Positions 1 to 6,056 of a stretch of 6,056 bases of DNA are shown here, one piece after another (positions within the stretch are counted from its first letter, which is position 1; the number at the start of each line of letters is the position of its first letter). The position numbers were made by a program, and so were the translations under genes. Source of the DNA: a virus. The stretch spans positions 1 through 6,056 of IMG/VR virus record IMGVR_UViG_3300020041_000042, one strand, 5' to 3'. The notes under the pieces are model-generated. The model was not told where the DNA came from, made no database searches, and was given only the letters and a program-made list of their open reading frames with translations.

Positions 1-121
1 AGCAGCCGACTAAAGCGATCGGGATTCGAGGGGACGACGGCCATAGGATGATACTTTAAGATGCTGCGAATCAAAGGTACTATTGCCGTGCCAGGAGTTG
101 TAGAAAACTGGCTAGTCGGAT
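1..121. repeat. Terminal direct repeat, copy 1, identical to 5936-6056. It is the overlap produced by linearising or assembling a circular genome.
   Basis: Base-by-base reading shows 1-121 (agcagccgactaaagcgatcggg...gctagtcggat) equals 5936-6056. The capsid reading frame runs through the junction without interruption. Confidence 0.95.
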
Positions 122-968
122 AAGGATTTAAATCACCCGCCAAATCACTCAACGCCATGACCGGGAAACCATCGCCGGAAGCGCCACTGCCTTCTATATC
201 CGACATAATAATCTGACCGTAAAGAGCGGCGCGATTATAAGAATTATTAGACGAGGAAAGAGCCGACGGGTAAAACTGGCTTTCAAAATAGGCGTCGAGG
301 TACTCAACATTACCGAAGCGTTGAGCAAAAAAGGATGCTTGTGGAAGAGGCTGCGACGAAAAAGCGCCGGAACCGTCTTCTGTAATATAGGAGGTTCCAG
401 GCCAGGCGAAAGAGTAAACACCCCACTGACTGTAGGCGTAATAGTTACGGACGATATCCCAATACGCTAGATAAGTATCAGAATTAAAATAAGCGGACGA
501 GTTGCCAGTAGTGGGAATAGACACACTTGTAGATTCTGCGTCGGTAAGCAACCGAGAGGGCTCCGTAACGGAGACACGAAGCCAATTAAAAAGCGAATTA
601 GAGTAACCACCACGCTTACTAAACATCTCAACGCCAGAAACAGCCGGAGTGCTGGGCGCCGGAATCCAGTTGAAGCTAACGCTATTCATGTCAAACTTAC
701 TGCTATTCGTTCGCATTTCAGGGTGGTACAGCTGCATCGGCACCCAAAAACGATGCAAACGAATAGTATAGGGATTGAACGTCGGAACAGCAAGGGGGTT
801 ACTGCGAACGTCAATACCCTGCTCAATAGATACGCGATCTCGAGCGTTAATGAAATCAATTCGCACCGGATACAAGATACCTGGTGTGCACGTAAAGGCT
901 TTGCTCTCAGGAACATCGTAACGAGAGTAACCATTTACAGCATGAGAGATAAAAGGTTGTTTTCCCAT
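1..968 (-). CDS. VP1: Microviridae major capsid protein VP1 (F-protein family), N-terminal about 322 codons. The gene continues across the circular junction into 5935->5101, for 600 aa in total.
   Basis: This is my own translation; the ORF track omits it because it runs off the window edge. ATG at 968-966 begins MGKQPFISHAVNGYSRYDVPESKAFTCTPGILYPVRIDFINARDRVSIEQGIDVRSNPLAVPTFNPYTIRLHRFWVPMQLYHPEM...SDTYLAYWDIVRNYYAYSQWG...IVPLIRSILKYHPMAVVPSNPDRFSRLL. There is no stop codon from 968 to 1. The frame matches ORF 5101..6009, since 968-74 is a multiple of 3. The N-terminal block (TPGxLxP, RxxFWVPxxxxxxxM) and the AYWDIVRNYY block are typical of microvirus capsid proteins. Confidence 0.93.
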   Translation of the reverse strand, partial: MGKQPFISHAVNGYSRYDVPESKAFTCTPGILYPVRIDFINARDRVSIEQGIDVRSNPLAVPTFNPYTIRLHRFWVPMQLYHPEMRTNSSKFDMNSVSFNWIPAPSTPAVSGVEMFSKRGGYSNSLFNWLRVSVTEPSRLLTDAESTSVSIPTTGNSSAYFNSDTYLAYWDIVRNYYAYSQWGVYSFAWPGTSYITEDGSGAFSSQPLPQASFFAQRFGNVEYLDAYFESQFYPSALSSSNNSYNRAALYGQIIMSDIEGSGASGDGFPVMALSDLAGDLNPYPTSQFSTTPGTAIVPLIRSILKYHPMAVVPSNPDRFSRL

Positions 969-3081: not shown

Positions 3082-4458
3082 TTACCTAACTCTACGAGCA
3101 TGATTATACGTACTCGAATAACCGCTACGATTCATTTCTGTTTTCGCATAACCAACAAGATTTCCTTTCGAATCGTAACGAGTTGTAAGTGAAGAGCCAG
3201 TGGAATTACTCGAAGATCCACCAGCAGAGATGGTGCTAGCCGCACGCGACATACCTCCGCGAATTATACCTGCACCAGCGATACTGGCGGCCGCACCAAC
3301 CAAAGCCTTGGAAATTTCAACATACGGATCAACCTTGGCATTACGAAGAGCAATCCGAGCTTGCTCAGGGAGAAAATCAGAAGCATTCGCTTCATTTATA
3401 GCGGTCTTGTCGTAGAAGTCCTTGAGAGACATCGAAATTTTAAAAGACCGAGGACCAGGATTGCCACGAGTAATAGGATTTCCGCTTCTAAGATTCGCCG
3501 AATATTGAGGATTAGGAATTTCAACTTCAAAACGCTTATCCCAATTGCGCGCAAGTTCATTGGCAGCATCGAGGTTGTTTAGACGCAAAGACTCTATGAC
3601 CTCACGAGCTTGCTCACCAAGGACTTGATTAAGAGCAGCCTGAGTATTCATCATAAAGGCCTGAGCAGACATAACAGCACCTAAATGCTCGTTCTCAATA
3701 CCCAAACGGCGAACCTCCGCAGCAGTTAAGGCAGCTTGATTCTTTTTTTCATCAATAGCGCTCAAAAGGGTAGCATCAGAGATAAAAAGCGCATTCTTTT
3801 CAAGACTTTCCTGTACCTTAAGAACATCAGTAACGGCCAAATTATGCTTAGTAGCAGCCTGATCTAGAGCTACGCGAGTTTGAGCCATGAGAGTATACAG
3901 CTGATGGCCGACGTTTTGATCGCTAATCGATTGAGCCTCGGCATTGTCGCGATTAGCGGCAGCGGAATTGCGGTCAACCGTAGACTGCGCAATCATATTT
4001 TGAGCGACGGCCGTAGGATCGCCAGAAACAAAGGCGCCAGGGCTGACGGGAGTACTACCAGAAGGGCCAGAAGCAGAAGGCATAGATGCAGAACCTCCCG
4101 ACATAGTAGCATTGACGCCAACACCTGAAGAACCGAGTACGGCAGCGGGCGTAACGCCGGCCTTCAAATAACGATCGAAAACCTTCGAAGGATCATTATA
4201 AGCATTCTCGTAGTCGAACTGTTTTTGCCAATTAGCGTAGGAAAGTTCAGACTGCTTTTGCATTTGCTCCAACGCGTACTGCTGTTGAAGCTTCATTTGC
4301 TTTTGCTGAAAACGCCATTGGCGACGAGCGTTCATGCCACCAAAAAGCTGGCCTAAAAAACCATTAATAAGACCGGTAGTTCCAGTAGAGGCGGCAGATT
4401 CACCAAGAGCACGACCGAAAGAAGCAGTGGCACCGGCGGCGGCAATAGGAGCAGACAT
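3082..4458 (-). CDS. VP2: Minor capsid / DNA pilot protein VP2 (phiX174 H-protein analogue), 458 aa
   Basis: The N-terminus is Gly/Ala-rich (MSAPIAAAGATASFGRALG...GLINGFLGQLFGG), followed by a Gln-rich helix (RRQWRFQQKQMKLQQQYALEQMQKQ). The block YNDPSKVFDRYLKAGVTPAAVLG resembles the conserved AG(L/V)NP block of microvirus VP2. A long region follows that looks helical or coiled-coil, then a Gly/Ala hydrophobic segment (ISKALVGAAASIAGAGIIRGG) and a Ser/Gly-rich tail. Its position after the capsid gene also fits. Confidence 0.85.
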   Translation of the reverse strand: MSAPIAAAGATASFGRALGESAASTGTTGLINGFLGQLFGGMNARRQWRFQQKQMKLQQQYALEQMQKQSELSYANWQKQFDYENAYNDPSKVFDRYLKAGVTPAAVLGSSGVGVNATMSGGSASMPSASGPSGSTPVSPGAFVSGDPTAVAQNMIAQSTVDRNSAAANRDNAEAQSISDQNVGHQLYTLMAQTRVALDQAATKHNLAVTDVLKVQESLEKNALFISDATLLSAIDEKKNQAALTAAEVRRLGIENEHLGAVMSAQAFMMNTQAALNQVLGEQAREVIESLRLNNLDAANELARNWDKRFEVEIPNPQYSANLRSGNPITRGNPGPRSFKISMSLKDFYDKTAINEANASDFLPEQARIALRNAKVDPYVEISKALVGAAASIAGAGIIRGGMSRAASTISAGGSSSNSTGSSLTTRYDSKGNLVGYAKTEMNRSGYSSTYNHARRVR

Positions 4459-4459
4459 G

Positions 4460-4651
4460 CTACAAATTAGTTAAATTGTTCGAACGAATAATGTAATCAA
4501 CACGCACAGTATCGATGTGAACGCCACTACGCTGCATTCTAGCTTGAGCTGAACACGAAGCAAGAAAAAAAGCAGCCAGCGCGGCAACGATAGACGAAAC
4601 AAGTGTCCAAAAAGCCTTCGACTTATAGAAGGGTTGTTTAGTATCAGACAT
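4460..4651 (-). CDS. Small predicted lipoprotein or membrane protein, 63 aa from ATG 4651. The track ORF extends to ATG 4762.
   Basis: MSDTKQPFYKSKAFW-TLVSSIVAALAAFFLA-SC has a Lys-containing n-region, a 16-aa hydrophobic core and a lipobox, L-A-S-C (Cys33 codon at 4555->4553). The mature part would be only 30 aa (SAQARMQRSGVHIDTVRVDYIIRSNNLTNL). The TAG stop lies 1 nt before the VP2 ATG. Confidence 0.65.
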   Translation of the reverse strand: MSDTKQPFYKSKAFWTLVSSIVAALAAFFLASCSAQARMQRSGVHIDTVRVDYIIRSNNLTNL

Positions 4652-4681
4652 AGAAATAAAAATTAAAGAACGATAGAAAAA

Positions 4682-4754
4682 TGCGCGGCCTCTCCTGCAG
4701 TCGTTACCAATAACCTTCAGCAATTCACGAACTCTTTCAGAAGGGGTCCGCGCA
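4682..4754 (-). other. GC-rich long imperfect hairpin in the spacer between the acidic ORF and the lipoprotein gene
   Basis: On the plus strand, tgcgcgg (4682-4688) is the exact reverse complement of ccgcgca (4748-4754). The stem can extend by 5 more pairs, including one G:T (cctct 4689-4693 with agggg 4742-4746), across a 1-nt bulge (t4747). On the coding strand the 3' arm is followed by ATTTTTCT. This is the most GC-rich patch in an otherwise AT-rich non-coding fraction. Confidence 0.45.
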
Positions 4755-4784
4755 CGTAGCATATATCGTCAAGTAAAGGATATA

Positions 4785-5100: not shown

Positions 5101-6056
5101 TTAACGATTAGATAAACGGGTCGCAAATGTTTTGTTAACAAGGTTCTTCTTGCGCACGCTATAGGAGAGATTCACAAAGAAGTTATCCTCAACATTCGAC
5201 AAGAAAGGAGAATTAACCTGCGGCATATCAACAAAAAGGAGAGATGCGACATAACTAGAAGGAAGCGCAGTCCCTTTCAAGAGAGCCGAAGAATAGCGCT
5301 GCTGAACCCAATAAGAATAAAGAGGAACCGAGCCAGTACCAGAGGGACCGGAAAATACCGAAAGTTGTCCGAGCACCTCATCATACGACGACCTAAATTC
5401 GTTGTAACACGGCTCCTTGGCTATAGAAGAAACAGAAGTAGACTGGCCAAAAACATCTGTAGAAACGTCCTGATAACCGATATCATTGTAGATAGGGTTA
5501 AAATAATCAGAACCGCGATAAGTCAAATAATCAGGTCGAATGCCAGCCCAATAGTATACAGGACGAATACTAAGCATGTCAATCATATAGCCGGGTTCGC
5601 GAAAGTAATACGATTGGGAACGGCCAAGCTGGGCATTAAACGCGATCGAGCCGCCTTGCTGACCAAGAGGACCCATCGACGAATCTCCTCCAAAATTGCT
5701 AAATCCGGCTTGATTCATAACAACCTGAACGTTAACAGTCTGCGAGGCACTAAACAAGAGTTTAGGACGATCGACGTGTTCTATCTTAGACGCAAAGAAT
5801 GTTTCGAGCCAATCTGAATAACGATTACCGCCAGCGCCAAGAAGGTCTTTATACTCCTGCAAACGCGAAGCAATAGCAAGCTGAGGAATAGTAGAAACAC
5901 CAGTCATAGAAACGGCATCTGACGAACCATTAGGCAGCAGCCGACTAAAGCGATCGGGATTCGAGGGGACGACGGCCATAGGATGATACTTTAAGATGCT
6001 GCGAATCAAAGGTACTATTGCCGTGCCAGGAGTTGTAGAAAACTGGCTAGTCGGAT
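5101..6056 (-). CDS. VP1: Microviridae major capsid protein VP1, C-terminal part. The unique portion is 5101-5935; 5936-6056 repeats 1-121.
   Basis: The track ORF 5101..6009 starts at an internal TTG (Leu) codon, and the frame stays open upstream to the window end. The protein ends ...FVNLSYSVRKKNLVNKTFATRLSNR. It is followed by three tandem in-frame stops, TAA-TGA-TAA (5103->5095). Total length is 968 + 835 = 1803 nt, or 600 aa plus stop. Confidence 0.93.
   Translation of the reverse strand, partial: PTSQFSTTPGTAIVPLIRSILKYHPMAVVPSNPDRFSRLLPNGSSDAVSMTGVSTIPQLAIASRLQEYKDLLGAGGNRYSDWLETFFASKIEHVDRPKLLFSASQTVNVQVVMNQAGFSNFGGDSSMGPLGQQGGSIAFNAQLGRSQSYYFREPGYMIDMLSIRPVYYWAGIRPDYLTYRGSDYFNPIYNDIGYQDVSTDVFGQSTSVSSIAKEPCYNEFRSSYDEVLGQLSVFSGPSGTGSVPLYSYWVQQRYSSALLKGTALPSSYVASLLFVDMPQVNSPFLSNVEDNFFVNLSYSVRKKNLVNKTFATRLSNR
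5936..6056. repeat. Terminal direct repeat, copy 2, a duplicate of 1-121. The unit genome length is 5,935 nt.
   Basis: Same as copy 1. Position 5936 corresponds to position 1. Confidence 0.95.

Follow-up and report, generated by a model that had tools for sequence, protein, structure and literature searches.

A conserved small lipoprotein gene beside the DNA pilot gene VP2 of a microvirus, with a tentative role in virus release

What does a free-standing lipoprotein gene do in a virus genome of about 6 kb? We address this question for the open reading frame (ORF) at positions 4460–4651, minus strand, of the IMG/VR virus record IMGVR_UViG_3300020041_000042, which was analysed over its full length of 6,056 nucleotides (nt), here called the window. 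Because its first 121 nt are repeated as an exact direct overlap at the other end (1–121 = 5936–6056), the window corresponds to the circular genome, 5935 nt long, of a gut microvirus. A preliminary description, made from the letters of the window alone, had singled out this ORF as a candidate lysis or superinfection-exclusion gene, noting that it lies outside the canonical microvirus gene set and that lysis genes are mostly unidentified outside the phiX group; both of these observations stand (for the latter, PMC3394797). We find that the ORF is a real gene and belongs to an undescribed lipoprotein family specific to microviruses, and tentatively suggest that its product acts in the release of progeny.

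The ORF runs from an ATG at 4651–4649 to a TAG at 4462–4460 and encodes a product of 63 amino acids (aa), MSDTKQPFYKSKAFWTLVSSIVAALAAFFLASCSAQARMQRSGVHIDTVRVDYIIRSNNLTNL. Among 85 distinct relatives of the same length, the ratio of nonsynonymous to synonymous polymorphism (pN/pS) is 0.125 in this frame as against 2.1 and 2.6 in the other two, and diversity is highest at the third codon position (28.1, compared to 6.7 at the first and 3.3 at the second). For comparison of the locus 80 IMG/VR genomes were fetched, and the ORF was undisrupted in all 92 loci examined. It was found by tblastn in 42 phage records, and all 20 of the DNA-level relatives listed bear the gene in one of the two forms, type A or type B, described below. 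A search of 5.8 billion proteins returned 396 protein clusters matching the ORF, whose source contigs are of microvirus genome size or shorter, save for two of about twice that size. Thus 4460–4651 is a genuine gene under strong purifying selection, free-standing as the preliminary description had it.

Gene callers were divided about evenly between the 63-aa form and a 100-aa form starting at ATG 4762. The 100-codon reading was rejected. About one third of the close relatives show either a stop four codons ahead of Met-4651 or an insertion of about 100 nt, distant homologues bear stops just upstream of the Met, and the 37 extra codons would run through a conserved, covarying stem-loop at 4681–4755 that is non-coding. 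We therefore place the start at Met-4651. At its other end the gene is separated from VP2 by a single nucleotide (TAG-C-ATG), and 84 of 88 relatives keep this spacing, so that the coupling proposed earlier from one genome extends to most of its relatives and fits late co-expression with VP2. The adjacency is lost in L088, L089 and L091 and in every long form of the gene (see below). In GenBank, features named 'similar to VP2' in L004 (MG945498, 2987–4612), MG945680, MG945716 and MG945683 engulf the lipoprotein ORF; in L004, the only one of these records that was read, a stop codon parts the two genes, and its feature is therefore an annotation artefact rather than a fusion.

The protein contains the sequence F28-F29-L30-A31-S32-C33. 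The PROSITE rule PS51257 calls for Lys or Arg within the first seven residues, a lipobox of the form [LVI][ASTVI][GAS]C and a Cys at position 15–35. With K5, an uncharged h-region and Cys33, the window's protein conforms to it and is the sole such ORF in the six frames, although a single sequence is weak evidence here because about 12% of shuffled windows also give one PS51257 ORF. We therefore turned to conservation. None of the 85 close relatives departs from Ser32 or Cys33; 84 of them have Leu at position −3, and position −2 is taken by Ala, Ser, Thr or Val. The rule is passed by 127 of 132 short and 140 of 143 long homologues, position −1 is Ser, Ala or Gly in 129 of the short and 140 of the long forms (the exceptions may be cases of a mis-assigned Cys), and the Cys lies 32–33 residues from the Met across 275 family members. 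The type II signal peptide and lipobox of the preliminary description are thus conserved family-wide at the positions that matter to signal peptidase II, and the homologue search it had proposed has found the ORF intact and the lipobox conserved. We consider the lipoprotein reading well supported by conservation, with processing at Cys33 as its predicted consequence.

The residues ahead of the lipobox are no less constrained. Conservation per codon averages 0.94 over the n-region, where all 85 same-length relatives have K12 and where S11/K12 reach at least 90% conservation in a wider alignment. Amino-acid conservation of the hydrophobic segment is 95%, next to 96% for the mature motif, with third positions free (0.41–0.44). 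This is unusual for a signal peptide. The peptide predicted to remain after cleavage had been described as a basic one of 30 residues; 30 do follow the Cys, giving 31 with it, but the peptide is only mildly basic (four Lys/Arg against two Asp/Glu, a charge of about +1.8 and an isoelectric point of 9.5). Neither the short nor the long forms vary at its residues R41, G43, H45, D47, T48 and V49. In Bacteroidota, export of lipoproteins to the cell surface needs C-X-K-(D/E)2 (Capnocytophaga) or SDDDD (Bacteroides fragilis) after the Cys (PMC5080379). An acidic residue at +2 to +6 is found in none of the short and in 5 of the 143 long forms, and since the window's mature peptide has no acidic residues at these positions, and hence no surface-export signal, it is predicted to face the periplasm.

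More than 600 protein clusters, all of them from microviruses, share the conserved n-region, hydrophobic segment, lipobox and Cys33. Searches of Pfam, PHROGs, NCBIfam, PADLOC and PDB gave no family match, the signal region alone having sub-threshold similarity to generic lipoprotein-signal models. A GenBank protein with the automatic name 'MAG TPA: lipoprotein [Microviridae sp.]' (P0035) is a family member, 94% identical, and this name is the sole earlier label; we found no paper on a microvirus lipoprotein or on the conservation, modularity or function of this family. It is an undescribed, microvirus-specific family, akin to small phage and plasmid lipoproteins that act on the envelope.

Within the family, signal segments and tails occur in three combinations. 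In the first, that of the window, the signal segment is followed by tail A (R-x-G-V-H-I-D-T-V-R-V-D-Y). In the second, type B, the same signal segment carries an unrelated tail of about 31 residues, T-T-R-H-Y-V-V-Q-S-A-S-S-I-K-S-G-D-T-T-R-T-T-I-T-Y-E-Q-V-G-N-F-K-R-P; this tail B was found in five relatives, in the same gene slot and without a BLAST match to the window's protein, and type B has full-length matches in ten or more phage records. In the third, seen in the Alistipes metagenome-assembled genomes (MAGs) L106 and L107, a different signal segment precedes tail A. The Cys stands at the junction of signal and tail in all three, and the window's hydrophobic segment is retained in the type-B as well as the long forms. 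Since each half is conserved at the amino-acid level and is also found with a different partner, both halves look functional. A protein that masks a phage's own receptor should track the capsid, and one aimed at a conserved host component need not. Using comparisons with the full 600-aa VP1, we find the module 57–76% identical between phages whose VP1 proteins are 22–27% and VP4 proteins 28–29% identical, and tail B in genomes whose VP1 is 66–68% identical to that of the window. Tail type does not follow VP1 identity, suggesting that the protein is aimed at something conserved in the host, independently of the capsid.

The long forms extend this picture. An exhaustive search of 1.84 billion representatives gave 53 clusters, about 30 of which are proteins of 160–223 aa with the module at the N terminus, and a second search gave 233 clusters at 90% identity with lengths mostly of 194–202 or 217 aa. 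In Alistipes-type microvirus prophages a single ORF of about 197 aa, directly upstream of VP4, comprises the module, then an overprinted linker and lastly a basic J-like tail. The linker, of about 100 residues, is rich in Ser, Thr, Leu, Phe and Pro and poorly conserved, and its +2 frame encodes a protein of about 130 aa with motifs, FDPxxxPVYTC and HLWGKMF, that are conserved in divergent prophages; the comparison was made between the proteins of the two frames, the loci being too few and too divergent for a codon-based selection test. The tail ends in RSRRGGRRGxxRPKxxKxIPLGGSHL. The window has its J-like peptide as a separate mini-gene, which shares sequence, in a different frame, with the 3' end of the 120-aa ORF and whose product we take to resemble the DNA-binding protein J of phiX and G4.

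It is also the long forms that point to a host. A first scan of reference genomes, using a long form as query, gave no match; a second, using the family alignment, matched only Alistipes montrealensis kh20 and two Alistipes MAGs, and one long-form protein on a 225-kb contig is named as Alistipes sp. Complete microvirus prophages lie in Alistipes chromosomes, in L105 (kh20, NZ_JAGYXY010000001) at about 7900–12800 and in L102 at about 5300–11900, the latter flanked by hisD, hisG, a DUF4251 gene and znuA, and no integrase was seen near the Alistipes microvirus prophages. These copies point to Alistipes as the likely host genus of the gene family.

What, then, might the protein do? Tentatively, we favour a lysis or release factor, a processed lipoprotein that would work in the manner of the colicin lysis proteins. 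It would be translated from the same transcript as the late gene VP2 and inserted through Sec by way of its conserved n-region and hydrophobic segment; Cys33 would be acylated by Lgt and signal peptidase II would cut after Ser32. The products would be a 31-residue lipopeptide facing the periplasm and a conserved free signal peptide in the inner membrane, one or both of which may damage or deregulate a conserved component of the host envelope and so bring about release, either alone or together with a two-helix membrane protein encoded inside VP4 (see below). Several observations are consistent with such a role: within a genome of 6 kb the gene is retained universally and without any disrupted copy, it is linked closely to a late gene, its size and architecture resemble those of colicin lysis proteins, it and M15 peptidases were not found in the same genome, it is decoupled from capsid identity, and in the long form it constitutes an N-terminal membrane module with the remainder overprinted on another gene.

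In the colicin lysis proteins (bacteriocin release proteins, BRPs) the signal peptide is stable and toxic and contributes to lethality, and in the microvirus protein, too, both halves appear functional. BRPs are small lipoproteins that cause quasi-lysis and activate the outer-membrane phospholipase A (PMC9517006). In both cases a very small prolipoprotein, of which about 30 residues make up the mature part, is expressed together with a neighbouring cargo gene. The two differ in that the window's protein has no match to Pfam Lysis_col up to an E-value of 10 and carries an unrelated mature motif, GVHIDTVRVDY, and in that BRPs are encoded on enterobacterial plasmids whereas this gene is that of a Bacteroidales virus. 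A more far-reaching version, which we regard as possible but doubtful, is that the family represents a viral 'protein antibiotic' of a new class, a single-gene lysis factor of the lipoprotein type that strikes a conserved component of envelope biogenesis in Bacteroidales. The agent would be the lipidated 31-residue peptide, the released signal peptide or both, and its targets might include lipoprotein processing or sorting, outer-membrane protein assembly or a step in cell-wall synthesis. Such a class would explain how the module keeps 57–76% identity and is exchanged among microviruses with capsids of about 25% identity.

A number of findings weigh against a release role. The databases listed above hold no homologue of the protein among lysis proteins, and although single-gene lysis (Sgl) proteins are known to evolve fast and de novo (PMC7693330), the module, unlike them, is among the best conserved proteins of these genomes. 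AlphaFold gives a helix with a predicted local distance difference test (pLDDT) score of 85–90 but is uninformative on the mature part (pLDDT 51–67). The type B lipobox, L-E-S-C, has a Glu at −2 that breaks the PROSITE rule. The lysis model leaves unaccounted for a secretion signal and a J-like tail in one ORF, and in the prophages the module gene lies at the edge, a typical place for lysogenic-conversion or exclusion genes. Finally, the lipoprotein cannot be given a lysis function by elimination, because the window has a second membrane-protein gene. This gene, at 1085–1444, is a genuine overprinted gene inside VP4. Its frame is open in 37 of 38 same-length relatives, third-position diversity of VP4 drops from 0.43 to 0.18 over exactly this interval, and the product, with two hydrophobic segments and a basic C terminus, is conserved in distant relatives down to 31% identity with the motifs IRENSYLLALVI and PPYPxE[KR]R. 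In the manner of phiX E or K it suggests itself as a lysis or membrane protein, and as one of the Sgl type it is a candidate equal to or better than the lipoprotein. Lysis may therefore be due to the VP4-embedded gene, the lipoprotein or both. Open stretches in the +1 frame are also present in VP4 of the Alistipes prophages, where the similarity may merely mirror a conserved VP4 motif.

An M15 peptidase has been proposed as the lysis device of some gut microvirus lineages (PMC3394797). We found none in about 100 module-bearing loci and, conversely, no module in four peptidase-bearing microviruses; this exclusivity may merely reflect different clades, which also counsels caution about the release role. 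Bacteroides phage phiHBP1 (L095, PV598014), an isolated microvirus of Bacteroides fragilis, has at 84–488 (minus strand) a 'hypothetical protein' that is an M15-type peptidase, 40–49% identical to annotated phage endolysins, and no homologue of the lipoprotein was found in this phage. In L099 (PQ006596) an annotated 40-aa ORF at 3245–3367, MVYILVLVLVVIKLIIILCFRKKKSISNNKRIGIVDNKRF, encodes one hydrophobic helix and a basic tail; it sits between the VP2 and peptidase genes and may be a holin-like partner. A scan of the peptidase-bearing microviruses for other small membrane ORFs was uninformative: spurious hydrophobic ORFs abound in the AT-rich alternate frames.

The placement of the gene beside VP2 in the window's clade, together with its small phage lipoprotein signature, would also suit superinfection exclusion or receptor inactivation, as by T5 Llp, phi80 and N15 Cor or streptococcal Ltp. 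Here the lipopeptide would bind an outer-membrane receptor or the conduit of the incoming pilot protein and block the entry of further microvirus DNA, which would also spare released progeny from being wasted on cell debris. We judge this unlikely. The gene llp of T5 reportedly adjoins the receptor-binding gene, in the way that the window's gene adjoins, and is coupled to, a host-entry gene; the prophage-edge position in Alistipes could allow expression in lysogens; the two alternative tails could correspond to two alternative targets; and the predicted orientation towards the periplasm is shared with Llp and Cor. Moreover, a study of phiHBP1 is reported to trace the evolution of its host range to the capsid and pilot proteins (PMC13064476). 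However, the independence of tail type from the capsid, with the same tail across very different VP1 proteins and different tails among similar ones, weakens the receptor masking of the Llp or Cor type that the preliminary description had suggested. VP2 is far more variable (30–80% identity) than the lipopeptide, and the adjacency to it is lost in the genomes named above. Exclusion would leave the amino-acid conservation of the signal segment unexplained, and a gene without any disrupted copy in a 6-kb genome would be unusual as an accessory. The mature part is about half the size of those of Llp and Cor and has no sequence similarity to them, and neither PADLOC nor any known exclusion family gave a match. 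The suggestion of an o-spanin-like fragment has likewise lost ground. As with lambda Rz1, this is a small outer-membrane-type lipoprotein of a phage with a diderm host, but the 31-residue mature part has no proline, no Cys beyond Cys33 and is too short to span the periplasm. A candidate i-spanin partner is also missing, no homologues of endolysins, holins or i-spanins being found among the window's ORFs in Pfam or PHROGs.

If the protein were instead an accessory envelope or assembly factor, it might modulate burst size like phiX K or serve as a membrane tether tied to DNA packaging, a reading that we hold to be distinctly unlikely. It would make sense of the long forms, about 30 clusters at 50% identity and 233 at 90%, in which one ORF is kept from the module to the J-like tail, as well as of the J-like mini-gene of the window, and the overprinted membrane protein would then be available for lysis. 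A secreted, lipidated N terminus is nevertheless topologically hard to reconcile with a cytoplasmic DNA-binding tail, the window's version works without any tail, and we know of no precedent. Quite improbable, in our estimate, is an uncleaved, signal-anchored single-pass protein like phiX174 E, the MraY inhibitor, with a helix that would bind and inhibit a membrane step of cell-wall precursor synthesis, a Cys conserved for another reason and a short C-terminal part that is largely replaceable. The matching amino-acid conservation of helix and mature motif, with synonymous sites varying freely, would suit it, as would the type B proteins, where the tail is swapped and the helix retained. The long form is overprinted on another gene, much as phiX174 E is embedded in D. 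E and the window's protein are each a small membrane protein of a microvirus in which an N-terminal hydrophobic helix, the part most highly conserved, is followed by a mildly basic remainder, overprinted in the long homologues (linker only), and E is the only microvirus lysis mechanism known (PMC3394797). Against this, the residues flanking the Cys obey the signal-peptidase-II rule in more than 270 homologues, which a plain anchor would not need, and the type-A mature motif is conserved also behind the quite different hydrophobic segment of L106 and L107. The window's gene stands by itself, with the stem-loop on one side and VP2 on the other, has the conserved lipobox and Cys, belongs to a virus of a probable Bacteroidales host and encodes a protein without sequence similarity to the E families in Pfam or PHROGs. 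E depends on Pro21, whereas residues 14–32 here contain no proline. Of the uncleaved architecture proposed in the preliminary description, the unusual conservation of the hydrophobic segment thus speaks for it and the conserved lipobox against it. The colicin analogy, the structured element upstream, the long fused Alistipes homologues and the VP4-embedded gene are all additions to that description.

The structured element directly upstream of the gene consists of an invariant outer stem of 8 base pairs (bp), GTGCGCGG/CCGCGCAT, pairing 4755–4748 with 4688–4681, and an inner hairpin of 9 bp, four of them covarying, pairing 4744–4735 with 4723–4714. Across the alignment 98.8% of cells are paired, compared to 29–48% with the partner slid, and 42 double-sided (compensatory) changes were counted as against 8.2 ± 4.6 in shuffles (0 of 500). 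A run of T follows the stem-loop. It has no match in Rfam and no tRNA match. In the spacer between it and the ATG, about 22 nt next to the stem are more than 90% conserved in more than 80 relatives and about 12 nt next to the ATG vary. Some close relatives (L021, L023, L024, L034, L035 and others) have the insertion of about 100 nt at this place, and the insertion has its own hairpin with compensatory changes (GCGGTTCGGAGAACCGC / GCGCTCCGGAGGAGCGC / GCGCTTCGGAGAAGCGC). The element could be a terminator, an RNA-stability element or an origin of the complementary strand in single-stranded DNA (ssDNA). Since the packaged strand of microviruses is of mRNA sense, the stem-loop could function at the level of either the RNA or the ssDNA genome.

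The features of the locus and the remaining genes are collected in Table 1. All genes of the window lie on the minus strand. A TTG start, giving 118 aa, is probably too far upstream for the acidic ORF between VP1 and the stem-loop, because its relatives start near MALDW; the product may be a scaffold-type protein. By direct reading, no gene of the window is preceded by a Shine-Dalgarno sequence, and genes without one are typical of Bacteroidota. A scan for sigma-70-type promoters around the lipoprotein gene found no sites, Bacteroidales promoters being outside the models of that tool, and the single terminator-like match in its neighbourhood on the coding strand is a weak stem of 5 bp that falls within the gene itself. 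The closest GenBank records are uncultured Microviridae from faeces of pig, deer, civet, rodent and lemur, with about 75–81% identity across at most half of the genome. The host of the window's microvirus is probably an Alistipes-like member of the Bacteroidales.

Table 1. Coordinates of the lipoprotein gene, its parts and the other features discussed (positions in the window unless another record is named)
Feature	Position	Strand	Basis or remark
VP1, 600 aa	968 to 1, on from 5935 to 5101	−	spans the circle junction
Acidic ORF, about 100 aa, between VP1 and stem-loop	4785–5141	−	59–87% conserved in relatives
Structured non-coding element	4681–4755	−	covariation; directly upstream of gene; conserved flanks 4652–4680, 4756–4777
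T-rich spacer ATTTTTCTATCGTTCTTTAATTTTTATTTCT between stem-loop and ATG	4652–4680	−	no Shine-Dalgarno
Lipoprotein gene, 63 codons + TAG	4460–4651	−	ORF translation, pN/pS, intact homologues
n-region, codons 1–13, MSDTKQPFYKSKA	4613–4651	−	net positive: K5, K10, K12
Hydrophobic segment, codons 14–29, FWTLVSSIVAALAAFF	4565–4612	−	conserved; AlphaFold helix
Lipobox L-A-S-C, codons 30–33	4553–4564	−	Cys33 codon 4553–4555
Predicted mature lipopeptide, Cys33–Leu63, 31 aa	4463–4555	−	motif R41-x-G43-V-H45-I-D47-T48-V49-R-V-D-Y
VP2, DNA pilot protein	3082–4458	−	PHROG 8689; begins 1 nt past lipoprotein-gene stop
Two ORFs, 103 and 120 aa		−	
ORF of 66 aa		−	
J-like mini-gene, 24 codons, basic, MKARRKKKGKGTKIVTRPLGGRVL	2322–2396	−	in 28 of 30 near-complete relatives
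VP4, replication initiator	972–2042	−	PF23343, PHROG 942
Overprinted membrane-protein gene, 119 codons, +1 frame of VP4	1085–1444	−	open frame; drop in VP4 synonymous diversity
Long-form ORFs (other records)	L102 6001–6600; L105 7977–8585; L101 1512–2114; L108–L111		

Beyond the phiX174 group the exit of microviruses from the cell is an open question, E being the sole mechanism worked out in the literature searched. Among gut phages, microviruses rank with the most abundant, and their main hosts are Bacteroidales. The present analysis turns an anonymous ORF into a testable family with a signature (the FWTL helix, the lipobox Cys and the GVHIDTV motif), for which natural domain swaps serve as ready-made controls and of which the named strain Alistipes montrealensis kh20 harbours a prophage copy. 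Work on lysis in this genome must cover the VP4-embedded gene as well as the lipoprotein. Should the protein prove to act in exclusion, no such factor would have been described in a microvirus before. Should it act in lysis, Bacteroidales would turn out to be killed through their envelope by a new kind of small protein, whose target would be of antibacterial interest.

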